From NCBI GenBank assembly GCA_016209015.1, contig JACQWY010000011.1:40922-104921 (forward strand): a DNA stretch of 64,000 nucleotides, written 5' to 3'. The notes under the pieces are model-generated. The model was given only the letters and a program-made list of their open reading frames with translations, was not told the DNA's origin and ran no database searches. A program made the translations under genes and the position numbers. Below, piece by piece: positions 3,854-52,578 of the stretch (its first letter is position 1; every line of letters starts with the position of its first letter). This DNA is from Gammaproteobacteria bacterium (GTDB lineage Bacteria > Pseudomonadota > Gammaproteobacteria > Ga0077536).

Positions 3854-3854
3854 G

Positions 3855-15800: not shown

Positions 15801-16025
15801 GGTGATGCGTGTCGTGAGCGCGTCAGGTGCGCTGATCTGACCCTGGCCGGCCACGACCTGGCCGCCCTGCGGTGCGGCGAACACCTCGCTCGCCGCCACA
15901 CCGAGCAGGAGCGCGAGACGGATCTGGCGCGCGAGCGGCTTCAAGCTGCGACCGTGGGCCGGCGAATGGGCTGTCGCTGCCGTGCCGTCGTAGCGGCCGG
16001 CTGCTTTCTCAACGGGCGTCTTCAT
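3855..16025 (-). CDS. Giant filamentous-haemagglutinin-like TpsA exoprotein (4056 aa)
   Basis: Long signal peptide ending VFA-APQGGQVVAG; TPS domain (IDWQSFNV, NRI, GRLNANGRVLLMNPNGVVFG); ~3000 aa of Gly/Thr/Asn/Ala beta-repeats with GGxGxDxF/L nonapeptides; charged C-terminal region; directly downstream of tpsB. Confidence 0.93.
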   Translation of the reverse strand: MKTPVEKAAGRYDGTAATAHSPAHGRSLKPLARQIRLALLLGVAASEVFAAPQGGQVVAGQGQISAPDALTTRITQQSANLAIDWQSFNVKSNELVEFRQPGRNAQALNRIFDQNPSQIFGRLNANGRVLLMNPNGVVFGTGAQVNVGSLVAAGLQAKVDDFMAGRLHLEGLDGADGVVVNQGLIAAATGGDVTLAGKAVRNEGVIVATAGRVNLAAGNKVTLDFDGDGLVRFTVDEGVLDNAQALDSAISNSGSVSADGGAVMIEAKAAADVFSRAVNNAGVIRAARVDNSGGVIRLVATGPEASVLNTGTLDAAAAGSGNGGAIELNADGRTTLAGGGVVRAAGGSGGTGGEVKVLGTTVELADQARIDVSGPAGGGAALVGGDRAGANPGVRNAGTTTLGRDASITASATGTGDGGKIIVWSNGLTTFLGSIEARGAAEAGNGGFAEVSGHHLQIGGHADLRAPNGRWGTLLFDPGTVTIKHGALGASVGTDVLVDADITDFLTNTGALVIDTEVDGAAGPSDITFDSSSGAIDITWNAPTKLTLSAGQNLSLAGNIAAQDGSFAPGSPYLELKFGQTVAGALSFNAVTINTSTDVSITGGAGSDTINGPSGGATFTTSGAGAGAISGPFAANYTSVQHLAGGGGNDTFNLNVDPGATVSTGGGTDLVRINVSLAAGSTLTGAAGTTFNLASGVTVADTITGGGTVVGPNNATTWGITGADAVTISVGATATLSGAFSLRGGTAADSFVFSDGATLSGTIAGGGGASANSLSFAAYTTARSVTLDAVGTNRGFKGHEAALNGGAANGFDNIDTITGGTGSDTLTGINSAGTWSLSGLSYTSTNVLGFSAFETLRAGSGGDTFDIDADFTGSLAGGAGSDTFAFVSTSALSGTIDGGSAGTDTLDFNGATAATDIALDGTGGAHGFRGHVSVLKAGAADGFTNITALVGHLGGGNQFKGAAATATWNLGASDVYTDGANSLTLTNFQNLIAGDGGDTFNINTNHTVGLHGGTGADSFVFGDAVVLTGALEGGTAGLDTLSFSGYTTARNVVLNGVGAAHGFSGTNAAISGTFDNITRVVGGSATDTLTGLNATSTWNLGANTYVSTNTLTFAGIENLVGGTGADTFVFADGATLAGTIDAGANSGTNTLDFSAYTTARAFVLDGLGTTRGFKGHEAAINGGGANGFDNIDALTGGTGTDSLAGLAAAAGVWNIAGTRTYVSTNTLTFSAIENLNAGGLGDTFNINVNHTGNLTGGAGSDDFVFANTRTVTGTIDGGSGGTDTLSFAAYNTARNVTLSALGTSHGFKGSEAAVTAFDDIDVLTGGSATDTLTGAAALAAVWNIGVTKTYVSTNTLTFSAFENLAAGGAGDTFNINQSVTGTLTGGAGNDSFVLASGVTAASIDGGSGGSDTLSFAAFGTARSITIAATLGTSHGFQGAEAAVTAFDDIDVLVGGSATDTLTGRNTASTWNLGASKTYVSGGRTLTYSALENLTAGTGGDTFNVSQNHSGNLTGGSGADTFNFSGAAVLTGMVDGAGASDALSFSGYATSVDVSPKGGSGKGDVSGVPDPIVGGVDDYDNIESVTGIATITAPNGQTNNWVVTGVDVFTLNGTSFAAAQVVGGDQIDNFTVNSGGRLTGGTGIDGSTGVNTLTTVAAGTFSITGANAGSLTTGGLTTTFTNIQTLIGGANADTFTFTGAFQVGSIQGNAGNDVINWAAFGSARTLVLSAMDATGATGTDTSASSSLTGTFSGIDSVTSAAGGILTAANQANTWAVNAADGGSLTSGGGTLAFTNFGTLTGGTSTDAVTFSGGGSLSGSLAGGTGTNTLSGDDTVNAWILTASNAGTLNGLSFTAFSSLTGGNTTDSFQFNGGSVTGNINGGAGGTNTLDYSLVAPATTLNVNLAAGTATSVGGSIGNINALTGNGANTTLVGPNSSAVYSVAAGGGSGTISVGPVSFTGVGSLQGGTGGGVTNTLSLAAAVADLTFTIAGTDDAGSVNTATPLAFSNMQNVTAGGGNDTFSFTGTGRITGTADGGAGTNHYDFSASPTPIAVDLGSLTNIQDVTGSAGADTLVGKNVANTFNITGNNSGNVVNAGGTVTFSSFEGLQGGTNADAFVFAAGAFTVVAIDGAGGSDTINWSNYGTTRDVSITALDANGADGLEAGSVIGGFANVETLIGKTGAPGQLTGPNAASTWSVTGANSGTLASGGGSVAFSEFKTLTGGTATDAFAFTGGGMISGSLSGGGTASGNTLTADNAANTWTMTNATDGSVATLGGTATFTGIGNLVGNAGNDTFDFPIGVTSLGTTTVDGGAGGTNAVHFAASGVTFNLALVSNLSSVDAAGTASTNTLVASNTGTTFNVSDLDLGDVNGGMTFTNFGSLTGGTGADSFVFTSAGAVHGRISGSVDGGGGAGVNVIDFSGSTLALKYTVGGAANSGSILDEALIASPPDVDLVPTFTNVQTVTGNGLGAIYGPDAGTQASTIWKITGVNSGTFGPTTGNENTFNNFLVVGGTSNDDFRFSSGGQIAGSIIGGGGTNKVTGAAAAANTWTLDSATGGSITVGGLTTNFSGIQTLLGGGVVDTFTPNASFTGNIDGGAGANTIDWSTSGAAHDVTLTALGTTVGFQGTVTGIGGGFDDITALVNPGAFPGTLTGANLVNAWTISGADTGSVTSGGRTMAYTNFANLAGGTNADTFAFTTGSQTGAVAGGSGTDTLDWSAFATGRTVVVTALDATGASGTEASIAAGFSGIESIANRTGAAGQLTGPNATNTWTINAANGGTLASGAGTLTFADFPTLVGGTDADSFVVTRNAAGTIGHVDGSSGADTLSFAGNAGVASLTVTGSGTVDGVQGTEHFLATGFDNIDVAVGSAGTDTLTNGGVATATWAVGGSESFTVGLRTLAFSAIENLTGSAADDTFDVTGNHTGNLSGGNGNDTFNIGGTGTVLTGNLVGGTGNDSFVFSADARITGSVNGGAAGNDTLDWSASTSAVSLTITNLATLDQGDLSPLVGATGPGFTGIDVYVTNNSLSTIIGPNSNATWTINGLNTFQIVVGINNATFTNVGNLQGGSANDDFVFTAGGRLTGSINGGGGTNTITGDNVATSWTLTGATSGTITGAGTGLGGSFSGIMNVTGGSAGDTFVVVGASAFAGAIDGGLGTNTIQGGDVANTWHLNGANAGDIGGNSAFTNVSQLVGGGADDTFQFSGAAGYATLDGGVGTDRLDYSALAGPITVDLKNHTASLVTTAGGTTNVEALTGSASAADTLIADDVANTWTVTAANQGTLDSFAFTGVENLTGGAAADRYVISGAGVLVSGTMDGGAGTNELVGNGIVNGWNITGANAGTMNGNAFTNVQNLTAQGANATLAFGAVAGISGTFTAPQITLATANIDTGGTALNVQGNVVTAGVQSITAGAITIAGNVTSSGALTLTSAAAPMAITGALTGSAGVVASTGGGNFTLGGALTTSGTTTISTGGGAIVLGGAVDAHSGAFSAQAPAGSFTVGGAIAAGSVDIASANSVIGAVTTTGSQTYSGSTTFNGDLHGANLVFNGNADIAGDVLAESSTNTWTFAGSVVGNGSLDINPTAGTDLLIDTTVAARHLSSTAFSGYHGHLIVGGILTPRTGPAEDARVDEINADRITVGSTFATHGDVTLLASNIDLLADLAATGGQVTMLAVGDTQGTGSASGDITGPTVGTVGITADKAVLIANNAIVNNQNIRLDLGGGPVLVAVSSSVQQPTFDPSSNATSQTFDPTALKIISSLTNPIGVQAVQVVFSNPAAALTGLQNVQFVDVGVFEQDLTLFGVLGNGIALSLDQCEDKDGCAPNVTMEELDKLIAGLKARLDVLKQRGKGERGGGRERKDLVAEYERQLASFEGYKKQLQDYQEAQEESRKDDFEDLDVGGAKGKPPAPAANQPAPEEDFEEVEKPSATQPQAAPKAAPAPAAPAAKPAEFEELDETFDDKPKAAPVQPAPAAKPAVPAPAAPKPTPAPAPKAAPKPAGKPAAAPGEFEELEEDIDDSFILSLADNADATPHGAVAIDATGRVRWQGELLLPAVHARY

Positions 16026-16067
16026 CGCGGGTCTCGCTACGCGGCAGCGCTCGCTGCGGGCGGGTCG

Positions 16068-16111
16068 ATGGTAGTGCGGGCATTGGTCCGTCGTCCATGA
16101 GTTGTTTCACA
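16068..16111 (-). promoter_or_regulatory. Candidate CRP/Vfr-type site plus -10 element upstream of giant tpsA
   Basis: CATGA-N6-TCACA at 16096-16111 (8/10 to TGTGA-N6-TCACA); minus-strand TACCAT at 16073-16068; site centre about -42.5 from the inferred +1. Confidence 0.35.
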
Positions 16112-16126
16112 CGCGGGCGGCGGAGG

Positions 16127-17944
16127 TCAGAAGTAGAAATTCAGGTCGAGCCAGTACACGGGGCGGCGGCCGTTCGTCGGTCGCGGACCACCGACCGGCG
16201 TCGCCACGCTGAGCTTCGAGGAGAAGACCTTCGGGTTGTTGAAGGAAATGGCTCCGCCGAGGCCGCGGTAAGTTTCGCTCGCGCGCTCCGTCGGCAATGG
16301 ATCGTTGATGCGGCCGGTCGCGATGTCGAAGAAGAACGAGACCTGCAGGAGCTCGCCCCAGGTGCGGTTGCTGAACGCCGGTTTGTCGGCGATTCCGGGG
16401 GCGTTGATGATCCATTCGATCGATCCGAACAGCGCCTTGTCGAACAGACGCTCCGTCGGCTGGTAGGCGCGGACATTCGTCGGGCCGCCGACCGAATACT
16501 GCTCGAGCGGCACGAGCAGATCCTCGGACCACTGCATTTCCGTGCGGAACAGCAGCGAGTGATTCTTCAGCTTGTCGCTGAGCGGCGTGAGGCTCTGCAG
16601 ACGCGAATAGCTCGCGAACATTTTGTCGAAGCTGCCCTGCGCGTACTGGCGGCTGCCGCCCTGGCGGCTCGGCTTCACACTGCCCGGGTTCTTGCCCATC
16701 GAGCCGAACAGATCGTTGAAGCCGTGCGTGTATTCGACGAGGCCCGAATTCAGGCCCGCGAAGCGCGAATCGACGGAGTCGTAATCGACGCCGAACAGCA
16801 TGCTCGAGAGATCGTCCTTCGACTGCTCGCGCTGGCGGATGTCGGTCACGGCCTGCGCGCGTTCGACTTCGAAACGGCCCGTCAGATTGCGCTGCCGGCT
16901 GCGCAGGAAGGCGTCTGCGAACGTGACGTTGAACGTCTGCGTCTGGCTCGCGATGTTGCGGTCCCGGAACGCGCCGCCGACGTCGAACTCGTTCTTGTCG
17001 TAGTGCACGCGCATCGAGGCGTCGTCGAGAAACGGCGCCCGGCTCCAGTAGAGCGGACGCTCGTAATCGAGTCCCCAGAAGAGCGAATTCGAGGGCGCGA
17101 CGGAATGCTGGAAGGAGCCGGTCAGCTTGTCGGCGGCGCCGGTGACGTCGTTCACGGCGAGTTCGGTGCGATAGCGCCGCGTGCCGGTCTCCTTGATGCC
17201 GTGATTGTCGTAGCGGACGCTGCCTTCGAAGCGCTTCTCCTTCTGGACCTTGATCACCATGTCCGCGGTGCCGACTTCCTGCCCCGGCTGGAAGACGCCG
17301 AACAGCGAGAGTCCGGGATAGGCGTTCAACTGGAGCAGCGCGGACTCGATCTGCTCCTTCGTCACGGGCTGGCCCACGAGCCCGGCGAACGGCCGCTCGA
17401 GCACTTCGGGTTTGTAGATTTTCTGGCCCTCGGTCATGACGCGGCCGAGCGCGCCTTCCAGGATTTGGATGCGGATGCGGCCGCCCTCGACGGTCTGCAC
17501 GGGCACGAAGGCCTGCGCGAGGATGAGGCCGTGCGCACGATAGAACTTCGTGATGTCGTCGGCGATTTCCTGGAGGCGGCCGACCGTCAGCCCCTCGGGA
17601 TGCGCGGCGAGCTGCTGCTGTGCGATCGCCTCGAGATCCTTGACGTACAGGCCGCGCTTCGGGCGGTCCGTGGCGCCGACGATTTCGAAGGCGGTGACTT
17701 TGATCTTCTCGCCGGCATCGACCTCGAGCGGCCGATCCGGCACGGCAGGGACGACGAACGCGGGTGCGGCGGGCGGCTGCGGCAGCGTCTGCCGTTCCTG
17801 ACCCGGGCGCTGTGCGCCGGGCTTCGCGGCATCGGGAACGGTCTGGGCTCGCGCGCCGAGGCACGCCCCGAACAACAGGACGCCTGCGATGCAAGCGCTG
17901 CGGCGCCGGACCCGGTTTGTCCCCCCGGTTTTGTTCAGGACCAC
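16127..17944 (-). CDS. TpsB (ShlB/FhaC/HecB family) outer-membrane transporter, locus 1
   Basis: Signal peptide, two POTRA-like segments (YRAHGLILAQAFVP-Q...G-I-I-ILEG), VGGPTNVRAY loop-6 motif, C-terminal LNFYF; GTG 17944 with GGGGGA RBS preferred over the ORF-track start 18025. Confidence 0.93.
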   Translation of the reverse strand: MVLNKTGGTNRVRRRSACIAGVLLFGACLGARAQTVPDAAKPGAQRPGQERQTLPQPPAAPAFVVPAVPDRPLEVDAGEKIKVTAFEIVGATDRPKRGLYVKDLEAIAQQQLAAHPEGLTVGRLQEIADDITKFYRAHGLILAQAFVPVQTVEGGRIRIQILEGALGRVMTEGQKIYKPEVLERPFAGLVGQPVTKEQIESALLQLNAYPGLSLFGVFQPGQEVGTADMVIKVQKEKRFEGSVRYDNHGIKETGTRRYRTELAVNDVTGAADKLTGSFQHSVAPSNSLFWGLDYERPLYWSRAPFLDDASMRVHYDKNEFDVGGAFRDRNIASQTQTFNVTFADAFLRSRQRNLTGRFEVERAQAVTDIRQREQSKDDLSSMLFGVDYDSVDSRFAGLNSGLVEYTHGFNDLFGSMGKNPGSVKPSRQGGSRQYAQGSFDKMFASYSRLQSLTPLSDKLKNHSLLFRTEMQWSEDLLVPLEQYSVGGPTNVRAYQPTERLFDKALFGSIEWIINAPGIADKPAFSNRTWGELLQVSFFFDIATGRINDPLPTERASETYRGLGGAISFNNPKVFSSKLSVATPVGGPRPTNGRRPVYWLDLNFYF

Positions 17945-18015
17945 TCTTCCCCCACTTACGCCGATACCGGCTCCGTACCCGGCGCGCGGACTTCGCGCCC
18001 CGGCCGCCGCTCGGC

Positions 18016-18044
18016 AGTATATCAATGCCCTCAGCGGGGCACAA
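18016..18044 (-). promoter_or_regulatory. Sigma70-like promoter for tpsB1
   Basis: Minus strand TTGTGC-N17-TATACT in an AT-rich gap. Confidence 0.5.
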
Positions 18045-41771: not shown

Positions 41772-42860
41772 TCACCAGCCTTCCATGACTTCCTCGAACG
41801 GAAAGCGCAGACCGACCGTGTTCCACACCTCGGCGACGCGCTTCACGACCGGCTCGGCCTTGCGGAACCACTCGGGGTGCCGCGCGTGATTGTCGAAGAC
41901 CTCGAAGGACTCCGGCTTCGGATCGCGATGCCCGAAGCGGTAGTAGAAGGACTTCACGAGATCCTCCATGCGCTCCTTGCCATAGGCGACGATGATGATG
42001 TCGCGGCTCGCGGAGAGACCGGTCGTCGCGACGTAATAGTGGTATTGCTCCCAATAGCGCAGGTAGGCGTCGAAGTAATCGGTGTTCGCGATCTCTTCCG
42101 GGTCGACGCCCGTGTACACGAGGTCGCGCCGCGCCCACTCTTCTATGTTGCCGCGGACCGCGAACTTGCCGTTCGCCGGCCAGCCGCCGGATTTCTCGTA
42201 GGTGGAGATGCACGACGTGACGGGATGGCGGACGGTCAGTATGTTCTCGACGGCGTGCCCGAGGATGCGATGGAAGAAGCCGCCGGCGTAAGTCCCCTTC
42301 GTGAGCTTCTTCGGCACGACGATCTTGCCGGAATGCGGTTTGTTCTTCCCGAAGTAGAGCTCGACCATCGTCAGGTACTCGGCCATCGTCTGCAGGCTCG
42401 TCGTCCAGGAGTTCACGCCGCGATCGAACGTGAACGGTCCGGCTTCGGGGAACCCGTCGTGCGCGATTACGTTCGGCACGCGGTCGGGGTGGAAGCCGAG
42501 CGCCCGGTAGATCTCCTTCGTCAGATACGAGCCGCCGTTGCGCGGCACGCCGATGATGTTGATGAAATGGAAACGAAGCTGGATATCCTTGATGAGCTCG
42601 ACGTCGCCGGTCATGAGCGCGACGAGGAGCTGATAGGCGCGGCCGATCGCCTGCTGGCCGACGGCGTTCGAGAGCACGAGCGTCGCGTTGTCGGTCGCGC
42701 TGCGCACGAGGCGGGCCTGTTCGTTCGTCAGCGCCTCGGAGAGCTGATCGCCCCACACCGCGCCTTCGAAGGGCACCTCGGCGACGATGTGGTAGAGAAA
42801 ATCAATGAAAACGGGCGATACGGGCAGCTCCCGATCGCTCAGCTTGATCTCGACACCCAT
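41772..42860 (-). CDS. PAPS-dependent sulfotransferase-fold protein
   Basis: 5'-PSB-like IIGVPRNGGSYL and 3'-PB-like TVRHPVTSCIS motifs; ~95-aa helical N-terminal extension; no signal peptide. Confidence 0.72.
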   Translation of the reverse strand: MGVEIKLSDRELPVSPVFIDFLYHIVAEVPFEGAVWGDQLSEALTNEQARLVRSATDNATLVLSNAVGQQAIGRAYQLLVALMTGDVELIKDIQLRFHFINIIGVPRNGGSYLTKEIYRALGFHPDRVPNVIAHDGFPEAGPFTFDRGVNSWTTSLQTMAEYLTMVELYFGKNKPHSGKIVVPKKLTKGTYAGGFFHRILGHAVENILTVRHPVTSCISTYEKSGGWPANGKFAVRGNIEEWARRDLVYTGVDPEEIANTDYFDAYLRYWEQYHYYVATTGLSASRDIIIVAYGKERMEDLVKSFYYRFGHRDPKPESFEVFDNHARHPEWFRKAEPVVKRVAEVWNTVGLRFPFEEVMEGW

Positions 42861-42941
42861 GGGGAATCCTGGTTCCGGATTGAGGCTGCATGGTAAGAGG
42901 GACGCCCGGGCGGTTCAAGCGAACCGGGACGTCGCGCGCGC

Positions 42942-43676
42942 CTAACTCCTTGAACGCGCGGCCTCGCGATCCAGCAGCGCCGCGAAGTTGTCGAGCGACA
43001 TCAAGTGCGCATAGAGACGCGCGAGCCAGCCGCGCGTCATCAACTCGCGAAGGTTCGCCACCGGCAGCTCGTTCAGCTTCACTTCGGCGACGCGCAGCAT
43101 CCCGGTGAGGCGTTTGCGCGGCGCGGCGTTGGGATTGATGTCCGCTTCGAAAGGCTCGAGCAGGCCGAGGTCGTCTATCAGCTTCGCGAATTCGTTCGTC
43201 TGCTCGCGCGCCGCGTCGAAATCCTCGATGAGACGCCGCAGCGGGTCCCACGCCGGTGTCGGCTCGCCTCGCGCGTCGAGGAGCACGGGCGCGGCGTGCT
43301 GATCGAGACCGCTCTCTTCGACGAGTATCAGCGACTGCGCACGTCCTTCCGGGTCCGTGACGCGAGCGGTGTGGAACGGATAGCGCCGCACGTAGGCCGG
43401 ACAATACGCTTCGGGCACCCACCGGCCCTCCTGCACGAACAAATTCACGCCCGGCTCGAGCCCGGTCAGCACTACGGGCTGCGGCAGGTTCGCCTCGTCG
43501 CGCGCGAAGACGATGGGGTAGGAGCGCGCGGCCGGCACGAATTCCGGCACGGTCAGGTAGAACGAGTGAAGTGTCGCGGCGAAACTCTGCGCGCCGGCAT
43601 GGATACCGCGCAGGCGATGTTTCGTCTTGTCGAATGGGGCGACCGCCCGGTAGCCCGGCGGTGCGGGGATCGCCAT
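42942..43676 (-). CDS. SapC family protein (copy 2)
   Basis: EFVPAARSYPIVF, PVVLTGL, YCPAYVRRYPF, LYAHLMSLDNF. Confidence 0.88.
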   Translation of the reverse strand: MAIPAPPGYRAVAPFDKTKHRLRGIHAGAQSFAATLHSFYLTVPEFVPAARSYPIVFARDEANLPQPVVLTGLEPGVNLFVQEGRWVPEAYCPAYVRRYPFHTARVTDPEGRAQSLILVEESGLDQHAAPVLLDARGEPTPAWDPLRRLIEDFDAAREQTNEFAKLIDDLGLLEPFEADINPNAAPRKRLTGMLRVAEVKLNELPVANLRELMTRGWLARLYAHLMSLDNFAALLDREAARSRS

Positions 43677-43689
43677 CGTCGGCCGTGGC

Positions 43690-44391
43690 TTACTGGCAGT
43701 CCTGCGGATTCGCGGCGGGCGTCGGATCGTGCGTGACCGGATTTCCCGAGCCGAGCGTGACGTTCGTCGGCGGGCCGCCGCGCTGGTCGACGAAGCCCCC
43801 CATGCCCTGCTCGAAGCCGAGCCTGCCGCCCTGCAGACCCGTCACGTCGATGCTGCCCTGGTGCACCTTGAAGTAGAGGCCCGGCTTCGGCTTGATGCCC
43901 ATGTCCGGGCAGCCGTCGGTGCAGTCGATCGCCTCGACGTCCGTGCCGCGGATCCCGATTGTCGCCACCGCCGTGCGATAACGGATTCCGGCGTGATTGC
44001 GCTGACCGATCAAACCGGTCACGGCCCGGAAGCCGCCCTTCAGCAGATTGAAGAAGCCGCGACTCTCGTTCGCGTTGTCGCTCAGCTTGTAGTCCTCGAT
44101 CTGGAAACGCGTGCTCGGACGCAGCACGATGAAGCTGCCGTCGGAGAGCTTCATGCGCATGAAGCTGTTCGTCGCAGTCACGACCGTATCGCCCGTGTTG
44201 ACGGGATGACCCTGCTGGAGATTGCGGATGTCGCCTTCCGAGGTCGCGGCCTGCGCCTTCCCGGTCAGTGTCACGACTTCGCCGGCCTTGTCGACCGCGT
44301 AGACCGCGGGCAGCGCGCCCATGATTCCGGCAAAGAGCAGGGCCCCGAGGCCTCCCGCGACGGTCTTGCGTCTGGCGCCTGCGTTCATCAT
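43690..44391 (-). CDS. Stand-alone FecR-domain exported protein
   Basis: Signal/anchor helix; GDTVVT, LSDGS-IVLRPST, LLKGGFRAVTG, T-VATIGIRGT; ATG 44391 overlaps the tpsA2 TGA (ATGA coupling); ORF track starts 44397. Confidence 0.88.
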   Translation of the reverse strand: MMNAGARRKTVAGGLGALLFAGIMGALPAVYAVDKAGEVVTLTGKAQAATSEGDIRNLQQGHPVNTGDTVVTATNSFMRMKLSDGSFIVLRPSTRFQIEDYKLSDNANESRGFFNLLKGGFRAVTGLIGQRNHAGIRYRTAVATIGIRGTDVEAIDCTDGCPDMGIKPKPGLYFKVHQGSIDVTGLQGGRLGFEQGMGGFVDQRGGPPTNVTLGSGNPVTHDPTPAANPQDCQ

Positions 44392-47300
44392 TGGCATAGC
44401 TGACCCTTGTTCGATTGTTGCGTGATTAGCCCGTCGCCACCACCGCCTTCGCCTTCTTCGCCCGTGTCGACGTTGTTGCGCCGCTCGTCATCTTCCGTCG
44501 TCGTGTCGTCGCTGAATTCATCCACGACCGGTGCCTTGAAGACCTCGGTGACCGGCGCGAGCAGGAGCTCGAGATCCGCGATGAAGCCCGTCGACAACAC
44601 GTTCTTGATGCCGCTGACGCCGCCGGTCGTCGCGAAGAGGATGTTCTGATCGCCGATATCGAACGCGCCACCCGAGCCGATCGTGATCTTGCCCGTCTGC
44701 TTGCCCCCCGGCAGCGACAGGCCGCCGATCAGGATCGTCGTGCCCGGCAGGGTCTTGAAGTTCGTATCGGCGTAGAAGCCGGTACCGGCCATGCCGGAAA
44801 CGTACGTGCCCTCGACCGCGATGGGATTCGTGTGGGTGTAGGCCGCGTACTGCGCGATGAAGCTCACCTTGGTCGGGTTGATGCTCTGGACTGGCCCGGT
44901 CAGTACCGGCCCATCCGACTGGAACACCACATACGGCGTATCCGGATCGTCGAATTTGAGGCCGCCGGAGGCGCCGCTGTGACCGAAGCCCGAGGCGCCA
45001 ATCATGATGCCGCCCTGCGCGCGGAACACCGCGTTAGGACCCACCCCGACCTTGCCCTGGTACTCCGGCACCGGGAGATGCTGGCCGTCGGGACGCACTG
45101 CGAGCGACAACGCCTTGATCGTCAGCTCGTCACCGAGCTTCGCCGGCAGCGGCACGTCACCGATCAAGACGGAACCCGGGATGAACAATCCGCCGTTGTT
45201 GACCTCGACGTAGAGGTTCTTCGCGGCGAAATCGCCGACGATGAGCGTGTTGCCGCCGAAGCCGAATTTAGTCTCGCCCAGCATGGCGGTACCGGAGCTC
45301 GAACCGCGGGCCGAGCTGCCCAGGCCGATGCTCGAGGGCAAGGCGAACTGAGAGCTCAGGTAGAGGACGGTCTGGCCCGCGTACGTCCGATTGTCTATCG
45401 CGACGGCCGGTGCGAATGTGCCGGGCACGGCGAAATTGATCATCGGTGCGTTCGTCTGCACGCTGACCGGCCCACCGCCGTCGTCGCCGATGAACACTTC
45501 CGTGTTCGCGATGAGAATGCCGGCGCCGATGGTCTGGATGCCGCCTGCGCCACCGTTCCGAACCTGCACGTATCCGGAGGAGCCGCCGACGGCGGCAACC
45601 GGCCCGCCGATCGTGATCGCCCCGGCCGAGGTGTTGCGGATGCGGACGCCCGCGAAGCTCGGCCCGGTCGCGACGATCGTTCCGGCAACCGAGACACCGC
45701 TCTGGCCGAGGATATCGACCGCCGCACCGCTGTAGCTGGAACCGCCGTAACTCGTGCTACCGAGGTAACCGGACCCCGTCCCGCGCACGGAAATGCCGCT
45801 CTTCACCGCGACCGTCGCGCCCCTGAGTTGAACGAGCGCGTTCGAACTCGCTGCGGACGCCGTGATCGCGCCGTTGACAGCAATCGAGCCCGTGGCGCTG
45901 ACGCGGATAATCTGCTGCCACTTCCCGACCGCACTCATCGCGCCGCCGACCGTGATGTTGCCGCCGGAGCTGTCGTTGTAGAGGCTGATCCATCCGCTGC
46001 CGCCGGTGTTGGCCACGCTGAGGTTGCCGCCGATGGCGATGTTGCCCGCGCCCTGGTTCTTCACGTAGATGGAAGAGCTCGAGCTCGCGGCGGTCGCGGT
46101 CATGTTGCCGCTGACGTTGATGCCTCCACCGTTCCAGTTCTCGATGTCGATCCAGGCTCCGGAGTCCCCACCGGTCACGGTGACGCTGCCGTTGACGTTG
46201 ATCGCTCCCCCGCCCGAATTGTGTACGTACACCGAGCCGCTCGCGGAAGAGGAGGCTCCGCCGTTCGCCGTGAGATTGCCGTTGATCGCGATGCCGCCGC
46301 CGTTCGCGGAGTTGCCGATATCGATCGAGGCGTCGCCGCGCGTGGCCGTTGCCAGCACATTGCCGGTGATCTGCACGTTGCCGGTCGAGAAATTGTGCGC
46401 GGAGATGCTGGCCGAACCGCCGGTCGCCGTGATGTTGCCGTTGACGACGAGACCGTTCTGAGCGTTCAGATCGATGCTGGCACTGCCATAGGACGCGGCG
46501 GTTGCCACGGTGATGGCGCCGTTCAGGTTCAGGCTCGTGCCGTCCATGCGCAGCCGCGCGTCCCCCGAAGCCTGCACGGTGCGAACCGTGATGGCACCAC
46601 TCGTCACGACCGGGCCCGACGATGCGTTGAAACGCAATCCCGCCCCGTACGATCCCGTGACCGACACCGCGCCGGTGACACCGATGTGCGTCGCGGCCTG
46701 TATGTTCAGCATCGCGCCGCCGAAATACGCGCCGCTGTTCGAGCCACCGCTGAAGCCGCTGAGCGTGGCACCTTGCGCGACGTCTACGGAATTGCCGGAG
46801 AGGCTCACAAGCGAGTAAACGCCCGTGTTCGGAATGGCGATCGCGCTGATCGGACCGGCCACCGTCAGATGAGCACCAGTGGCGGCGATATCCGCCTTCA
46901 ACGCGCCGCTGCCCGTGAGCGTCAGCGAGCCCATCGTGACGTCGCCGTGGGCCGTGACCTGCACGCGGTTCGCGCTCACGTTGCCGAGTTGCACGACACC
47001 GGCGGTGCTGCCGGCCTGGGCGTTGAGCTGCCCCCTGAGCGCGATGTTCACGCCGGCGAGGTGGATATCGCCCGCGGCCGTGGGGAGAAACGTCGGGACA
47101 CCGCTGCACACACCGAAGGAGCACGCCCCGGAATAGTTGCCGATGCCGAGCCTCAGGTTGCCCGCGAGGCTGCCCGACGTCGCATCGACGGTCATCGGGC
47201 CGGCCGCGAAGATTTCGTTCGTCGCGATGAGGCTGACGTTCACACCTGATTTGAGCTGGTTCTCGATGAAGCTCTTGCCGACGGTCGTGAAGCTCGAGGC

Positions 47301-48554
47301 GAGGCTGCCGCTGCCGTTGCCGTACGACGGATTCGAGGCGTCATTCAGGATCTTCAAACGCGCCGGATCGATGAAGAGCTGGCCGCCCTTGCCGAGCTCG
47401 ACCTTGCCGCGCAGCGCGATGCTCTGGTGACCGCTGACCTCGACCGCGCCGCCAGTGCCGCCCTGGTCGCCACCGGTCGCGACGATGGTCGCGCCGGCCG
47501 CGAAATTCAGATGCCCGTCCGCGATCACGCGGACCGCGCCCCCGTTACCCGCAGCATCGCCGCTCGCATCGATCGTGGACTGCGGTGCGAGCGTCACGTC
47601 GTGGTCGCTGACTACGACGGCCTTGCCGCCGCTCTGGCCCTGCTCGCCCGCGACGTCGATCGTGCCGGCATTGACGACGTTGCCGCCACCCGCGGCGAGC
47701 ACGATCTCGCCCTCGTGTTCCTGGATGGAGCGCGCACGCATGAGCCCTTCGTTGTTCACCGCCGCCGCGGCGAGGCCGTCCGCGACTTTCGCCGTCATCA
47801 CCACGCGGCCGCCGTCGGCGACGATCTGGCCCGCGTTCTTCACGCCCGCGAGGGCGGAGACGGTCTTCTCGTCGACTGCGATGTTGACGAGGCCGTCCTG
47901 GTTGATGTCGAGCGTGATCTTGTTGCCGGAGGCGAGCGCGACGGTGCCGAGCTTCGCGCTGATGAGGCCGCTGTTGTCGGCGCGGTCGCCGAGCAGCGCG
48001 ACGAAACCGTCCGCGCCGTTCGTCGAAATCCGTCCTTCGTTCACCACGGAAGCACCGTCCGGACTGTTCGCGGTCTTCGTGAACACGTAACGGCCGTTCA
48101 TGAAATCGTCGTCGCGGATGTCCAGCACGCTCGCGGCGATCGCACCGACGTCCACCTGCGCGCCGGGTGCGAAATACACGCCGCGCGGGTTGACCAGGAA
48201 CACCCTGCCGTTCGCCTCGAGGCGGCCGAAGATGCTCGACATGTCGGGGCCGACGACGCGGTTCAGAATCGCGGCGTTCGTACCCGGCTGCACGAACTTC
48301 ACGTATTCGTTGCCGGCGATGGAGAACGACTGCCAGTTCATCACCGCCTGCTGGCTCGTCTGGGTGACGACGGTCGAGCCCGCATCCGGGCGTGCGACCG
48401 TGGCTGCACCGCCGAGGAGCTGCTCGCCGGCCGGACCGGCCAGCGCGAGACCCGGCAGCGCAGCGAGTGCGCCGTAGCCCAGCGCTATGCTCGTGCGGCT
48501 GCGAATGCCCGCCGCGATCGGCTTGAGAAAGAATTCCTGAGACGTGGCTGTCAT
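44388..48554 (-). CDS. Filamentous-haemagglutinin-like TpsA exoprotein (1388 aa)
   Basis: Signal peptide ending ALA-GP; TPS domain (MNWQSFSI, ILNRV, GRLEANGRVFLVNPRGVYF); Gly/Ser/Asn-rich beta-helix passenger; acidic tail ending GQLCQ. Confidence 0.93.
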   Translation of the reverse strand: MTATSQEFFLKPIAAGIRSRTSIALGYGALAALPGLALAGPAGEQLLGGAATVARPDAGSTVVTQTSQQAVMNWQSFSIAGNEYVKFVQPGTNAAILNRVVGPDMSSIFGRLEANGRVFLVNPRGVYFAPGAQVDVGAIAASVLDIRDDDFMNGRYVFTKTANSPDGASVVNEGRISTNGADGFVALLGDRADNSGLISAKLGTVALASGNKITLDINQDGLVNIAVDEKTVSALAGVKNAGQIVADGGRVVMTAKVADGLAAAAVNNEGLMRARSIQEHEGEIVLAAGGGNVVNAGTIDVAGEQGQSGGKAVVVSDHDVTLAPQSTIDASGDAAGNGGAVRVIADGHLNFAAGATIVATGGDQGGTGGAVEVSGHQSIALRGKVELGKGGQLFIDPARLKILNDASNPSYGNGSGSLASSFTTVGKSFIENQLKSGVNVSLIATNEIFAAGPMTVDATSGSLAGNLRLGIGNYSGACSFGVCSGVPTFLPTAAGDIHLAGVNIALRGQLNAQAGSTAGVVQLGNVSANRVQVTAHGDVTMGSLTLTGSGALKADIAATGAHLTVAGPISAIAIPNTGVYSLVSLSGNSVDVAQGATLSGFSGGSNSGAYFGGAMLNIQAATHIGVTGAVSVTGSYGAGLRFNASSGPVVTSGAITVRTVQASGDARLRMDGTSLNLNGAITVATAASYGSASIDLNAQNGLVVNGNITATGGSASISAHNFSTGNVQITGNVLATATRGDASIDIGNSANGGGIAINGNLTANGGASSSASGSVYVHNSGGGAINVNGSVTVTGGDSGAWIDIENWNGGGINVSGNMTATAASSSSSIYVKNQGAGNIAIGGNLSVANTGGSGWISLYNDSSGGNITVGGAMSAVGKWQQIIRVSATGSIAVNGAITASAASSNALVQLRGATVAVKSGISVRGTGSGYLGSTSYGGSSYSGAAVDILGQSGVSVAGTIVATGPSFAGVRIRNTSAGAITIGGPVAAVGGSSGYVQVRNGGAGGIQTIGAGILIANTEVFIGDDGGGPVSVQTNAPMINFAVPGTFAPAVAIDNRTYAGQTVLYLSSQFALPSSIGLGSSARGSSSGTAMLGETKFGFGGNTLIVGDFAAKNLYVEVNNGGLFIPGSVLIGDVPLPAKLGDELTIKALSLAVRPDGQHLPVPEYQGKVGVGPNAVFRAQGGIMIGASGFGHSGASGGLKFDDPDTPYVVFQSDGPVLTGPVQSINPTKVSFIAQYAAYTHTNPIAVEGTYVSGMAGTGFYADTNFKTLPGTTILIGGLSLPGGKQTGKITIGSGGAFDIGDQNILFATTGGVSGIKNVLSTGFIADLELLLAPVTEVFKAPVVDEFSDDTTTEDDERRNNVDTGEEGEGGGGDGLITQQSNKGQLCQ

Positions 48555-48681
48555 GTTGGATCACCCGCGGCGCGCGAGGACGCGCCTGATTCCTGCGTGA
48601 GTTCTCGTAATCCTAGTCGTGCCCGATCCAGAACGGCTGCGAATTACTTCACGCCCGGTCCCCCCGTTTCGGCACCTTTTA

Positions 48682-50358
48682 TCAATAGTTTGCAGAAAAG
48701 CCCGCCCACACGCGCGCACCGCCCTCGCCATCGGTCGAATCGTAAGCGCCGAGCGGATGCGAAACCGAAACGTCGACGTCGAAGTAGCGGGTCGCGTGCG
48801 CCAGGATCCCGAAGCCGATCCCGGTCAGCGACTGGGTGTGATGAACGCCGAGCTTCTCGTATTCCTTCGTGAACACGCGGCCGTGATCGATGAACACTTT
48901 CGCGGTGGTGTCGAACATCTTCCACTCCGGCAGCGGATGCTGCAGCTCGGCACTCAGGAAGTAGCCGTCGTCGCCACTGAGCTCGGAGGACGGGAACGCA
49001 CGGACGCTGGTCGGGCCGCCGAGACGGAAGCGCTCGGTGTCGACGAGCGGCTTCGCGGAGGCGACGCCCGTCGCGCGGAGTGCGACGGAGAGCTCGTGGT
49101 AGACCTTGCGGAAGTGACTCAGGTCGATCTGGAATTTCGCCGCCTCGGCGTTGTTCTCGGCCTTGCCGCTGGCCGGCGTGTTCGCATCGAAGTTCGACGA
49201 GAACGAGAAATTCGCGGTGCTGAAGCTCGAATCCGGATGGATGTAAGTGACGAGGGCGGTCAGCACGCCGACGCCGATGTCCTCGCCGGACCGCGTGCCC
49301 GTGCCGCGCTCGAACTGCCGCGTCACGGTGCGATCGAAGCCGAGCCCCATGTACAGATTGAGATTCTTCGAGCGGATGAACGGGTGCAGCACGTTGATCC
49401 CGAAGTTGTCACCTTCGCCATCGAGATCCAGCGAGGAGAACGCCGCCGGCAGACGATTGCGATCGACGTTGTAGTCGTAGCGCGCGAAATAGGCCGAAAC
49501 GCGCGTGCCCTGGTTCGTAATCGGCAGACTGTAGCGGAAACGGCCGTAGTGGAGCAGGCCGCGTTCGGCCATGACGCCCGACATCTCGAGCTTGTCACCG
49601 CGCCCCGTCAGGCCGTTCAGCGCGAGATCGGCCTCGGTGCGCCACTCGCCGATCGACGAGCGGCCGTAGTTGTTCAGGCGCAGCGCGGCATCGACCAGCT
49701 TCTCGGCGGATTGCACCGTGATGTCCGAGGTGCCGTATTCGTCGCCGGGCTGAATGACGCTCCTGGCGGAATAGCCCGGGAGATCGTTCAGCACGAGCAG
49801 CTGGCGCTCGAGCGCGGAGTCGCGGACCACTTCGCCGGACTTCAGGCTCGTCATGTTCCAGCGCAGGAAGTTCTCGTTGTAGCGGCGCTCGCCTTCGACG
49901 TTGATCTTGCCGATGCGGCCCTCGATCACTTCGAGCTTGATCGTGCCGGAAGCGACTTTCTGCGCCGGCACGTTCGCGCTTGCGACAGTGAAGCCGTGGG
50001 TGCGGTAATAGCGCGTGACGAGATCGGCGACGTCGTAGATTTCGAGCAGGGTGAGCTGCTTGCCCTCGTAGGGCGCGACGACCTGGTGGAGCTCGTCGCC
50101 CGAGATGGCACTGTTGCCCGTGATCTCGAACCGTTCGACGAGCACCTGCTTGCCGCCGGCGGGAACGCCCGCGCCGGCCTGCGGCGCGGCGGGCGCCTTC
50201 GGCAGGAGATCGGCGGGCGTCTTCGGCAATTCCTGGCGGGGACGCAGGGGTTCTTGCACGGTACCGGGCGTCGGTACGGCTTGGCCGTAGGCCGCGCAGG
50301 CGGTGGTGCAGGCGATTACGGCGGACAGGAGCCGCAGGGGCGTCGGGGCGCTTCTCAC
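48682..50358 (-). CDS. TpsB (ShlB/FhaC/HecB family) outer-membrane transporter, locus 2
   Basis: Signal peptide (AYG-Q), POTRA segments, LGGPTSVRAF loop-6 motif, C-terminal FSANY; GTG 50358 preferred because TTG 50394 lies at the predicted transcription start. Confidence 0.93.
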   Translation of the reverse strand: MRSAPTPLRLLSAVIACTTACAAYGQAVPTPGTVQEPLRPRQELPKTPADLLPKAPAAPQAGAGVPAGGKQVLVERFEITGNSAISGDELHQVVAPYEGKQLTLLEIYDVADLVTRYYRTHGFTVASANVPAQKVASGTIKLEVIEGRIGKINVEGERRYNENFLRWNMTSLKSGEVVRDSALERQLLVLNDLPGYSARSVIQPGDEYGTSDITVQSAEKLVDAALRLNNYGRSSIGEWRTEADLALNGLTGRGDKLEMSGVMAERGLLHYGRFRYSLPITNQGTRVSAYFARYDYNVDRNRLPAAFSSLDLDGEGDNFGINVLHPFIRSKNLNLYMGLGFDRTVTRQFERGTGTRSGEDIGVGVLTALVTYIHPDSSFSTANFSFSSNFDANTPASGKAENNAEAAKFQIDLSHFRKVYHELSVALRATGVASAKPLVDTERFRLGGPTSVRAFPSSELSGDDGYFLSAELQHPLPEWKMFDTTAKVFIDHGRVFTKEYEKLGVHHTQSLTGIGFGILAHATRYFDVDVSVSHPLGAYDSTDGEGGARVWAGFSANY

Positions 50359-50384
50359 ACTATTTAATCTCACAGCCGTATGGG

Positions 50385-50427
50385 AATCTTCCAAGGAAGA
50401 TTATAAACACGATATAAGGGATTGCAA
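50385..50427 (-). promoter_or_regulatory. Sigma70-like promoter with overlapping palindromic operator candidate
   Basis: Minus strand TTGCAA-N16-TATAAT (50427-50400); AATCTTCC-AA-GGAAGATT perfect 8-bp inverted repeat at 50385-50402. Confidence 0.6.
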
Positions 50428-50449
50428 ATTAAGCTTTTTTAGGGGGGCT

Positions 50450-51667
50450 TCAGTGCCCCTCCCCGATCCGGGCCGCTCGAGGCTCCAAGCAGCGCCGGAA
50501 GGAATCATACATTGCATGCAGGGTCTCCGTCCCGGCTTGCGCAGCGTACTTCGCGGCGAAGCGGCCGGCCGCCTCGCGAAACGCCGGCGCCGCGAGCAAG
50601 GCGGCGATTTTCCCGGGGATGTCGCCGGGCGCGAGCCGCGGCGCGGCGAGCCCCGCGCCATATTCCTCGAGCCGGCGCGCCGTCAGGAATTTCTCCAGGT
50701 TGTACGGCACGGCGAGCTGCGGCGTTCCGGCCTTGAGCCCGGACACGAGCGTGTTCAGGTTCGCGTTCGTGATCATGAGCGCGCTCTCGGCCGCGGCCCG
50801 CGGGACGTCGACGGGTTCGGACATCAGCTCCAGGGCCGGCAGCCGCGACCGCGCTCCGAGCGCGCCGCGATCGAGTCCCGGCGAGAAGAGGCAGACCCGC
50901 GCGCCTATCCCGGACAGCCCGGCCAGGATTTCGTCGAGCAGTATGCCGGGCTCGAGATAGGCGAAGACCGCCGGTCCCGCCCCGGCAGGCCAGCGCGGGG
51001 CCGCCCCGAACGCGGCATCTGCGTAAGTCCCGGCGTGCAGGACGCCGGGCCGCTCGGGATAGGGATCGAACTCCGGGACAGTCATCAGCACCTGCGGTGC
51101 CGCATAGAGATCGGCGAGGGCGGCGAGTGGCGCGGCATCGATTCCGGCGAGGGCCTCGTTCATGTTCGCGACGACCCGGTCCTCGGCCTCGAGCTGGCGG
51201 GCACGGTCGTGCGGCAGCCAGTAGCGGAGCGGGGGAACGGGGCGCAGCAGCGGCGGCGAATAGAAGCCGCTGCCGCAGACGATCGTGGGCACGCCGAGGG
51301 CGCGGCCCGCCATGAGCGCACTCGGGCTGAAGTCGGAGAAAATCGCGTCCGGTGCACGGGCGCGGAGCAGATCGCGCCAAGCGCGGGTCCGCACGGCGAG
51401 CGCCGCGCCGTCATCGAACCCGCAGTTCAGCAGGATCTCGGCGAACGTATACGGCAGCCGGATCCGACGCGCGGGCGGCGTCTCGCCCAACGGCGCCGCG
51501 AGAATTTCTGGCGCGTCGGCGCCGAACACGGCCGCGGCACGTTGCGGCGCCCGGGCCACGTAGACGACGCGATGGCCTTCCCCGCGCAGCTTCGCGACGA
51601 GCTCGCGATAGCGCAGGACGTGGCCGTAACCGGTGCCGTACTCCCAGCAGATGCAGATCGTCGCCAT
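50450..51667 (-). CDS. GT-B fold glycosyltransferase (GT1/GT28-like)
   Basis: ICICWEYGTGYGH N-terminal motif, DFSPSA, GTPQLAVPYNLEK UDP-sugar-binding region; ATG 51667 preferred over 51721. Confidence 0.85.
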   Translation of the reverse strand: MATICICWEYGTGYGHVLRYRELVAKLRGEGHRVVYVARAPQRAAAVFGADAPEILAAPLGETPPARRIRLPYTFAEILLNCGFDDGAALAVRTRAWRDLLRARAPDAIFSDFSPSALMAGRALGVPTIVCGSGFYSPPLLRPVPPLRYWLPHDRARQLEAEDRVVANMNEALAGIDAAPLAALADLYAAPQVLMTVPEFDPYPERPGVLHAGTYADAAFGAAPRWPAGAGPAVFAYLEPGILLDEILAGLSGIGARVCLFSPGLDRGALGARSRLPALELMSEPVDVPRAAAESALMITNANLNTLVSGLKAGTPQLAVPYNLEKFLTARRLEEYGAGLAAPRLAPGDIPGKIAALLAAPAFREAAGRFAAKYAAQAGTETLHAMYDSFRRCLEPRAARIGEGH

Positions 51668-51771
51668 CGTCCTCCCGGACCGCTGCGGAGACCGGGCGAG
51701 CCCGGCCCCCTTGCGCTTCATTCGCCCGGCGAATTATGCAATCATGCGGCGCACAGCACACCGATCCGCCT

Positions 51772-52578
51772 ATGGAAATTTCCTTGCTCGGTCTCCTCGC
51801 CATCATCGCGTACCTGGCGGCCGCCGTGCGCATCGCTGGCGGACGTCATGCCCTATCCGTGCTCGGTCTCGATGCTCGCCAGCAGGGGCTCGCGCTCGCC
51901 GGAATCGCCGTACTCATGCACGCCGTCGTGCTCTATCCGAGCACGCTCGTCGGCACGGGCGTCAACCTCGGCGTCTTCAACGCAGGCTCGCTCGTCGCAT
52001 GGTGCGTGACGGTGAGCGTCGTGGTCCTCGCACTCGTCAAACCGATCGAGAGTCTGGCCGTCGTGATCCTGCCGGTCGCGGCCGCAGCGATAGCGCTGAC
52101 ACTGATGTTCCCGGGCGCGCGGCTCATCACCTCGCACGTCGCGGTGGGACTCGAGCTGCACATCGCGCTCTCGATCGTCGCCTACAGTTTCTTCGTCATC
52201 GCGACCATCCAGGCCCTCTTCCTCGCGTTCGCCGAGCGCAAGCTGCGCCAACGCCACCCGATCCTGAATTTCCTGCCGCCGCTGCCCACGATGGAATCCG
52301 TGATGTTCCAGCTCACCGGGCTCGCGTTCGTGCTGCTGACGATCGCGCTCGCGCTCGGCACGCTCTACATCGTGAACGTCCGCACCCAGCACCTCGGACA
52401 CAAGATCACCTTCTCGCTGCTCGCCTGGCTCGTCTTCGCGGTCCTCGTCACCGGGCGCTGGCGCTATGGCTGGCGGGGGCGCCACGCGGTCAAATACGTC
52501 GTCACCGGCTTCGTTCTGCTCGCGATCGGTTTCTTCGGCACGAAAGTCGTCCTCGAACTGATTCTCCACCGGGCCTGA
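51772..52578 (+). CDS. ypjD: Inner-membrane cytochrome c assembly-family protein (YpjD/CcsA-like)
   Basis: Eight TM-like helices, LHIALSIVAY, LPPLPTME, HKITFSLLAW, GRWRYGWRG; ATG 51772. Confidence 0.88.
   Translation: MEISLLGLLAIIAYLAAAVRIAGGRHALSVLGLDARQQGLALAGIAVLMHAVVLYPSTLVGTGVNLGVFNAGSLVAWCVTVSVVVLALVKPIESLAVVILPVAAAAIALTLMFPGARLITSHVAVGLELHIALSIVAYSFFVIATIQALFLAFAERKLRQRHPILNFLPPLPTMESVMFQLTGLAFVLLTIALALGTLYIVNVRTQHLGHKITFSLLAWLVFAVLVTGRWRYGWRGRHAVKYVVTGFVLLAIGFFGTKVVLELILHRA

Follow-up and report, generated by a model that had tools for sequence, protein, structure and literature searches.

Six co-oriented open reading frames (ORFs) on the minus strand (41772-51721) were analyzed in a 64,000-nucleotide stretch of DNA, here called the window, from contig JACQWY010000011.1 of a gammaproteobacterial metagenome-assembled genome (MAG). 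They encode, in order, a GT1-like glycosyltransferase (GT), the transporter TpsB, the exoprotein TpsA, a FecR-like protein, a SapC family protein (SapC), and a 362-residue protein termed X362. An earlier note on this DNA had reported six genes in this place and order, some of them tightly spaced, and our reexamination agreed on both points. The TGA of tpsA and the ATG of fecR overlap as ATGA (this ATG is the second in-frame one; the first would make the overlap 10 nt), and the gap between fecR and sapC is exactly 13 nt. The other gaps measure 55 nt (GT-tpsB), 127 nt (tpsB-tpsA), 81 nt (sapC-X362), and 29 nt (X362-ffh). No terminator-like site was found inside the cluster on the minus (coding) strand. 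The G+C content of the window is 65 to 69%. The source is a groundwater MAG, and the sequencing runs that hold the window sequence are DNA metagenomes (groundwater) only.

Searches of Pfam and NCBIfam identified five of the six ORFs; the sixth, X362, was left without a match. With an N-terminal TPS domain behind a hydrophobic leader in TpsA and an adjacent TpsB, the locus is, by homology, a two-partner secretion (TPS; type Vb) system. TpsA and the FecR-like protein carry signal peptides, and the GT, SapC, and X362 do not. TpsA had been described as very rich in Ser, Thr, and Asn; the three residues make up 22.8% of the protein and locally reach 36%, so that the description holds only in part, and it is Gly (16.6%) and Ala (12.7%) that dominate overall. 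Dominance of Gly and Ala is usual in beta-helical TpsA passengers.

The GT had been set apart from the HMW1C-type enzymes of family GT41, and this distinction was upheld, since all of its matches are of the GT1 type. The Pfam match was to EryCIII-like_C (1.7e-6; 28.5 bits, below the gathering score of 31.7), and the NCBIfam match was to MGT (2e-6; 27.1 bits against a cutoff of 260). Among PDB entries, GT1 enzymes were matched at 4.5e-6 to 1e-2, with CalG1 (4.5e-6) and YjiC (6e-6) at the head. GT1 relatives in the PDB act mainly on small-molecule or natural-product acceptors.

SapC and the sulfotransferase-like protein X362

X362 had been called a sulfotransferase. No direct family match supported that call in Pfam, NCBIfam, a phmmer search of the PDB, or a profile search with close homologues; what sustains it is the predicted fold, the motifs, and transitive homology. 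The best PDB matches that Foldseek returned for the AlphaFold2 model of X362 (mean predicted local distance difference test score [pLDDT], 82.5) were human TPST2, human TPST1, and tick TPST, with probabilities of 0.96 to 0.99 and template modeling (TM) scores of 0.34 to 0.40; the TPST2 match had a probability of 0.99 and an E value of 8.5e-3. Stf1, Stf9, and plant and schistosome sulfotransferases followed further down the list. In the model, a strand (97-104) precedes a loop resembling the 5'-phosphosulfate-binding (5'-PSB) loop, and a strand (204-210) and a helix (213-223) surround R211-S219. Both motifs of a putative site for 3'-phosphoadenosine-5'-phosphosulfate (PAPS) are present, with the predicted 5'-PSB loop after the first strand and the predicted 3'-phosphate-binding (3'-PB) motif at a strand-helix junction.

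Relatives of X362 pointed in the same direction. A profile search of 1.84 billion cluster representatives gave a family of 227 members, all of them labeled "hypothetical," and the Pfam family Sulfotransfer_3 headed the matches of 7 among 10 distant full-length relatives (E values of 1.8e-5 to 0.13, which do not reach the gathering score). A profile of 54 members searched against the PDB gave the sulfotransferases OLS, CurM, and StaL at the top (0.0024 to 0.65, with 4gox at 0.0024). This profile aligned PRtGGtYL with PRSGSTLL (4gox and 4gbm) and TvRHP...S with VRHPYAVIES (OLS and CurM). Three residues (W36, D135, and P138) were invariant in the 54 members, and eight (G104, R107, G109, G110, K185, R211, P213, and S219) were nearly so. 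The conserved positions would correspond to a PSB loop that lacks the Walker-A lysine, a putative base, one lysine (in PKK), and the Arg/Ser pair of the 3'-PB motif (R-x7-S). On this evidence from sequence and model, X362 very probably belongs to the PAPS sulfotransferase superfamily, and it would represent a new, previously unannotated sulfotransferase family that is tied to SapC.

Close homologues of X362 numbered 803, again all labeled "hypothetical," and were 60 to 82% identical. Their length is fixed at 361 to 363 residues and the N-terminal Met-Gly is invariant; such constancy is unusual in an accessory gene when the adhesin locus around it evolves fast.

SapC matched PF07277 with 179 bits (cutoff, 28.9) over model positions 2 to 220 of 220, and its AlphaFold2 model had a pLDDT of 95.7. 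Its sequence had no match in the PDB. The best PDB fold match had a probability of only 0.23, and assignments to a cupin/hydroxylase-type enzyme or to another solved fold were dropped. SapC cannot be recognized as any kind of enzyme. Its Pfam family has neither a known function nor a known relative in fold, and we know of no SapC for which a function is established. We regard it as a candidate chaperone or adaptor.

TABLE 1 Features of the window and, in the last two rows, of related loci (L numbers)
Feature	Coordinates	Strand	Remarks
GT1-family-like (GT-B) glycosyltransferase, 423 aa	50450-51721	-	Probable start Met19 at 51667; no signal peptide
TpsB outer-membrane transporter, 570 aa	48682-50394	-	ShlB 1.1e-23, POTRA_2 6.2e-17
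TpsA exoprotein, 1388 aa, Gly/Ala/Ser-rich beta-helix passenger	44388-48554	-	TPS domain PF05860 2.7e-32 at aa 60-300; TIGR01901 2.6e-19
TpsA C-terminal tail, acidic low-complexity linker then LITQQS..GQLCQ	44391-44552	-	Cys1387, codon 44394-44396
FecR-domain/LapA-retention-module-like periplasmic protein, 235 aa	43690-44397	-	FecR 8.9e-9; Cys234, codon 43696-43698
SapC family protein, 244 aa	42942-43676	-	PF07277 1.3e-52; no signal peptide
X362, divergent sulfotransferase-fold protein, 362 aa	41772-42860	-	N-terminal helical domain of ~95 aa
Putative 5'-phosphosulfate-binding loop of X362, G104-VPRNGGSYL-113	42522-42551	-	
Putative 3'-phosphate-binding motif of X362, R211-HPVTSCI-S219	42204-42230	-	
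Sigma-70-like promoter match, 10/12, GT-tpsB spacer	50400-50428	-	Candidate; consensus match only
ccsA/ypjD-like cytochrome c assembly gene, upstream of GT	51352-52578	+	PF01578 8.5e-27
Second TPS locus	3107-18025	-	TpsB1 16127-18025, TpsA1 3855-16025, SapC2 3107-3853
Long FecR-like homologues	L002:8036-9154, L003:968-2077, L013:1403-2473, L081:7898-8989		P0300, P0304, P0307, P0322
Lipoproteins after X362	L047:11109-12008, L039:4199-5095, L044:11126-11947, L051:2547-4096, L055:9167-9961, L056:11035-11919, L057:4117-4920	Same as X362	

Conservation of the module across genomes

A scan of species-representative genomes provided 80 related loci, which were compared by tblastn, all-against-all clustering, and hidden Markov models (HMMs) derived from the loci. 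The counts given here rest on HMM and tblastn matches, with heuristic gene calls, and a locus was assessable for SapC, the FecR-like gene, or the TpsA-like gene if at least 1, 2, or 3 kb of upstream sequence, respectively, was in view. The sapC gene stood directly upstream of the X362 gene in 68 of 73 assessable loci (counted by hand from coordinates where stop-to-stop ORFs overlap) and was truly absent from that position in five (L011, L018, L025, L034, and L036). A FecR-like gene was found in 42 of 63 loci and a TpsA-like gene in 42 of 55. The GT was rarer: an orthologue was present in 18 of the 80 loci, and in 10 of the 18 loci with both of its possible positions in view. It preceded tpsB in eight loci (besides the window), directly followed X362 in nine, and directly preceded X362 in one. 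The synteny that had been proposed as a check is therefore present, in that the sulfotransferase, SapC, the FecR-like gene and, in this smaller share of loci, the GT are co-conserved with the TPS genes through shuffles of gene order.

At least seven arrangements occur. They include tpsB-tpsA-fecR-sapC-X362 without a GT gene or with one at either end, sapC-X362-tpsA (Solimonas), a divergent tpsB beside sapC-X362 (L060 and L066), and the reshuffled order of L030. Cultured carriers of the TPS, FecR, SapC, and X362 set are Nevskia (Nevskia soli), Sinimarinibacterium, and Endothiovibrio diazotrophicus, the last with a TpsA of at least 3,148 residues followed by FecR, SapC, and X362. Solimonas fluminis has a variant with SapC, X362, and a downstream TpsA, in which no FecR-like gene was seen.

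The module has at least ten downstream contexts. In other lineages, the genes after the cluster (ThiF/MoeB, PfkB, methyltransferase, Lgt, MobA, and DUF885) are unrelated and not conserved, and none was retained as part of the module, which therefore ends at the sulfotransferase or the GT. In the window, ffh and maeB lie downstream. Linkage to ffh is limited to close relatives, and we discarded the idea that ffh or maeB is functionally connected to the module because the adjacency is seen only in the nearest relatives.

In a maximum-likelihood tree of X362, the midpoint root had TPS-linked loci on either side, and the loci without TPS genes formed three nested, derived groups: a clade of about 16 loci from soil MAGs, in which SapC and X362 lie among LysE, DUF1684, MAPEG, and VanY genes; L036 and L038, on a long branch; and L011, L018, and L034, inside the clade of the window itself. 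The interval between ypjD and ffh holds X362 only in L011 (2308-3474) and L034 (1497-2663) and the GT with X362 in L018 (8663-11089). By comparison with the window, these three loci have lost the tpsB-tpsA-fecR-sapC block and kept the enzyme. Because the cluster recurs in dozens of genomes with differing flanks and several gene orders, it is, as far as gene order and phylogeny tell, a conserved ancestral module and not a chance neighborhood. By the same comparisons, its most stable core is SapC with X362, and the enzyme can persist without neighboring TPS genes.

A second TPS locus in the window (Table 1) also contains a SapC gene. The N-terminal 400 residues of its exoprotein, TpsA1 (4,056 residues), matched the TPS domain at 1e-34; a Pfam scan of the whole protein gave no match. 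SapC2 abuts the tpsA1 stop codon and is 35% identical to the first SapC. A FecR-like gene, a sulfotransferase, and a GT are all missing from this locus, and the C terminus of TpsA1 (...AVHARY) contains no Cys. ORF 16107-18044 was set aside as TpsB1, being in the wrong frame. An orthologous arrangement is found in L083, where the SapC relative lies beside a giant exoprotein (a PATR protein) and is accompanied by Sel1 and leuCD.

Upstream of the window cluster, on the opposite strand, lie the ccsA/ypjD-like gene and a CNNM/CorC gene. A 238-residue ORF (51853-52569, minus strand) opposite the former is probably spurious, having a low G+C content at third codon positions (0.68) and no family.

Two further observations concern the related loci. 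In the TPS-less clade, X362 is often followed on the same strand by a member of a lipoprotein family of about 250 to 300 residues with a lipobox, an invariant W-P-x-x-C-P-x-C, and no Pfam match; the idea that it is a diverged FecR-like protein was discarded (hhalign probability, 0.2). In addition, five MAGs (L001, L002, L006, L009, and L057) bear the titles Hydrogenophaga intermedia, Klebsiella pneumoniae, Klebsiella sp., or Bacillota and are nevertheless syntenic with the window, with X362, Ffh, and MaeB about 70 to 81% identical; the titles look like those of mislabeled bins.

The terminal cysteines and a proposed tether

A Cys occurs in the last seven residues of all 43 TpsA-like proteins that adjoin cluster genes. 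It is penultimate in 27 of them, and in many it is the sole Cys in 1,000 to 2,800 residues. The architecture of the tail is conserved as well: the end of the beta-helix is followed by a low-complexity linker of 20 to 60 residues, acidic or rich in Pro and Thr, then by [LIV][IV]-x-[QEK]-[QEK]-[ST], and finally by the Cys. The tail has a single Cys and not the two Cys near the C terminus that would make a "cysteine hook" in cis.

The FecR-like protein also ends in a Cys, which lay within the last four residues of all 26 locus copies and of all 120 database homologues (146/146), the latter being members of the same subfamily only, as the search reached no distant ones. Its other features are a signal peptide, a conserved GIRGT core, an internal C-x3-C pair, and a Pro-rich tail (DPxP...C). 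Some homologues are longer (340 to 370 residues, versus about 225) and have an extra segment, with the terminal Cys kept. FecR domains are best known from signaling proteins. Here, a FecR beta-domain stands alone behind a cleavable signal peptide, with no transmembrane segment and no anti-sigma domain, and no gene for an extracytoplasmic function (ECF) sigma factor or a TonB receptor was found in the window locus or related loci. The window protein matched the NCBIfam model NF033682 (retention_LapA) at 3.8e-8 with 33.6 bits (cutoff, 50), and the same model was matched by all 30 FecR-like proteins tested, always below the cutoff (best E value, 4.2e-10).

These features suggest a tether. The FecR-like protein, exported by Sec, would fold in the periplasm, and a disulfide between its terminal Cys and that of TpsA would join the two proteins. 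The acidic linker of TpsA would stay threaded through the TpsB barrel, with the passenger on the surface and the bulky plug, provided in trans, holding it there. Such a device would divide between two polypeptides what the cis "cysteine hook" does in HMW1, HxuA, and CdrA and what the retention module does in LapA, and the adhesin could be released by reduction or by cleavage of the linker. An intermolecular disulfide is the simplest reading because TpsA has one Cys and the second is on a translationally coupled, exported partner. The balance of sequence evidence and analogy tips modestly in favor of this step.

A modification step is proposed more tentatively on the basis of gene content, namely that the sulfotransferase, assisted by SapC, modifies TpsA or the FecR-like plug before export. 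PAPS and nucleotide sugars are cytoplasmic. Since the GT, SapC, and X362 are predicted to be cytoplasmic as well, any modification of a protein must precede Sec export. X362 would use PAPS to modify the exoprotein or the plug in the cytoplasm, SapC would serve as chaperone or substrate adaptor, and the GT, where present, would add a sugar, as HMW1C does for HMW1. In a bolder variant, X362 would S-sulfonate the terminal Cys, which would thereby be shielded in the cytoplasm and activated for the heterodisulfide in the periplasm. That TpsA or the plug is the acceptor at all is put forward with reserve; persistent linkage, the TPSTs as best fold matches, and a second TPS locus that ends in SapC speak for it. 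Taken together, a disulfide-linked periplasmic plug that tethers TpsA in TpsB in trans, with cytoplasmic modification enzymes added, is our best overall explanation, and its standing falls just short of an even balance. Its most specific form, in which the retention device is split and a new sulfotransferase family, with SapC as its substrate adaptor, sulfates the adhesin or the plug before export, is unlikely to be right in every part.

Several observations weigh against this explanation. The match of the FecR-like protein to the LapA retention module stays under the curated cutoff (33.6 versus 50 bits). The role given to SapC is a guess because its fold matches nothing known, and SapC relatives also occur beside a TonB-dependent receptor (L085) or with nothing notable (L084). 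The remaining points would be accommodated by a different account, in which X362 with SapC and the GT act on a nonprotein acceptor (a glycolipid, a sugar of lipopolysaccharide or exopolysaccharide, or a small metabolite), TpsB, TpsA, and the FecR-like protein alone form a secretion and tether unit, and the product either cooperates with the adhesin, e.g., by serving as its surface ligand or matrix, or leaves the cell independently of it. The conservation of X362 equals that of Ffh (81% versus 81% in L001), whereas TpsA diverges to 28 to 51% identity; an enzyme so much more conserved than TpsA is easier to reconcile with an acceptor that is small and invariant than with a passenger that evolves fast. 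A Tyr acceptor in an acidic context, conserved in the TpsA tail, was not found: a tail Tyr occurs in some homologues only, the tail of the window TpsA has none, and Y1208 is kept only in the nearest clade. In the clade of about 16 loci, SapC and X362 have unrelated housekeeping genes as neighbors, and neither TPS nor FecR genes lie within 10 kb; in five loci X362 is alone or with the GT only. GT1 enzymes, and CurM, OLS, and StaL as the closest sequence relatives of X362, act on small molecules or carrier-bound intermediates, such as substrates on an acyl carrier protein. We nevertheless consider a nonprotein acceptor somewhat unlikely. The linkage to TPS and FecR genes has been kept through no fewer than seven gene orders and in many genomic contexts, and the tree shows it to be ancestral. 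The loci have no co-conserved genes for lipids, sugar nucleotides, or polysaccharide export, the best fold matches of X362 are protein tyrosine sulfotransferases, and the other tpsA of the window, too, is followed by a sapC gene.

Other accounts dispute single parts of the proposal. The signaling background of FecR domains would suit a periplasmic regulator or chaperone, and the cytoplasmic enzymes of the cluster need a conserved target, for which the two Cys tails, as the most conserved short features, would qualify; instead of pairing, the terminal cysteines might then be lipidated, be joined to the envelope through a thioether or thioester, or be modified by the sulfotransferase or GT. This is improbable in our judgment, given adjacent overlapping genes for two exported proteins with one strictly terminal Cys each, for which pairing is simplest; the lack of a transmembrane segment, an anti-sigma domain, and ECF sigma or TonB-receptor genes; and the established cis disulfide anchors of TpsA proteins (PMC5422565). 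Doubt about X362 itself could draw on the absence of a match at any curated threshold, on the low TM scores, and on zeta-toxin kinases among the top Foldseek matches (probability, 0.7 to 0.9; TM scores lower than those of the TPSTs), which would allow another P-loop-derived enzyme, e.g., a zeta-toxin-like kinase. The loop P-R-x-G-G-S-Y, however, resembles a sulfotransferase PSB loop in having no Walker-A Lys, the R-x7-S motif and the PKK Lys are near-invariant and the Asp invariant across the family, 7 of 10 distant relatives match Sulfotransfer_3 and nothing else, and the top four PDB profile matches are all sulfotransferases with both motifs aligned; a kinase is quite improbable. Highly improbable, finally, is an independent SapC-X362 housekeeping unit beside which TPS islands have come to lie by descent, at a ypjD/ffh hot spot and without forming a functional system. 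The ypjD-ffh interval of the closest relatives, which holds X362 alone, the GT with X362, or the full set, and the clade with SapC and X362 only are what such a unit would predict, but the TPS, FecR, SapC, and X362 genes stay together where the flanks are unrelated (Nevskia, Sinimarinibacterium, and Endothiovibrio), Solimonas keeps SapC, X362, and a downstream TpsA together with no FecR-like gene seen, the neighborhood is kept while the order is shuffled, and the TPS-less states are nested and derived.

Two-partner secretion is usually presented as two genes with few accessory factors, and the module described here comprises five to six genes conserved across several gammaproteobacterial orders. 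Full-text searches of the literature found no description of it and no paper that joins these parts. The earlier note had known of no described TPS locus with a sulfotransferase, and none appeared in the searched literature; a TPS review (PMC5422565) makes no mention of sulfation. Neither the sulfotransferase nor SapC has a counterpart among known TPS systems. Pairing of the terminal cysteines, if it occurs, would make the module a new way to keep TpsA on the cell, with a plug made in trans and releasable by reduction; if the modification step is also true, the locus would yield the first case of a sulfated TPS protein, and SapC would for the first time have a function. A sulfated glycoprotein adhesin, as first imagined, is a hypothesis, and the further suggestion that it mimics eukaryotic sulfated glycans found no support in these groundwater and soil bacteria.

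Comparison with known systems

Among bacteria, RaxST is, to our knowledge, the only protein-sulfation system that has been established. The module resembles RaxST/RaxX of Xanthomonas, and TPST1/2, in that an enzyme predicted to be cytoplasmic and to have a PAPS-type sulfotransferase fold is encoded beside genes for a secreted protein and its exporter. It differs in that TpsA has no conserved acidic Tyr site, X362 is paired with SapC (68/73), and the exporter is of type Vb and not type I; TPST1 and TPST2 are the best fold matches of X362, yet X362 has no sequence-level similarity to solved TPST structures. The sulfotransferase domains of CurM and OLS, and StaL, are alike in the 5'-PSB motif PRxG[GS][ST]xL and the 3'-PB motif RHPxxxxxS, both of which align with X362, although E values reach only 0.0024 to 0.65 and X362 has the extra N-terminal helical domain of about 95 residues. 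Moreover, those enzymes serve polyketide and glycopeptide pathways, and no such genes are present at the X362 locus.

For SapC, the comparison is with the protein of the Campylobacter fetus sapCDEF S-layer secretion operon, which we take to be the founder of PF07277. Both are members of the same Pfam family and are encoded beside export genes of a large surface protein; export is of type I in C. fetus and of type Vb here.

CdrA is anchored by a "cysteine hook" in CdrB (PMC7616799), and in the LapA/LapE system an N-terminal retention module, which is folded, keeps LapA in LapE (bioRxiv 10.1101/198937). As in both systems, a folded periplasmic element at the last-leaving end would hold the adhesin in the pore; here, however, the plug would be encoded on its own and attached to TpsA through an intermolecular disulfide. 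Matches to the retention-module model were obtained for 30 of 30 FecR-like proteins, below the cutoff, and the domain makes up an exported protein of its own, encoded in a TPS locus. Unlike LapA, the TpsA tail has no LapG-type TAAG site, and the locus has no lapG or lapD.

In HMW1 and HxuA, the C terminus stays periplasmic and a disulfide-closed loop locks TpsA in TpsB; glycosylation by HMW1C, which occurs before Sec export, antagonizes the release of HMW1 (PMC5422565). The HMW1A/HMW1B/HMW1C proteins of Haemophilus influenzae and EtpBAC of Escherichia coli share with the window the presence of TpsA, TpsB, and a cytoplasmic GT in one locus, and the C terminus of the window TpsA is likewise expected to be periplasmic and locked by a disulfide-dependent structure. 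HMW1ABC differs in having a GT41 enzyme, where the GT here is GT1-like and present in only part of the loci, and in having no counterpart to SapC or the sulfotransferase. The Cys pair of HMW1 is in cis, whereas here one Cys would be contributed by the TpsA terminus and the second by the separate FecR-like protein. By analogy, it is still HMW1ABC that the module would resemble most in the way it works: the shared traits would be a TPS adhesin, a GT in the cytoplasm, and an anchor in the periplasm that depends on a disulfide.

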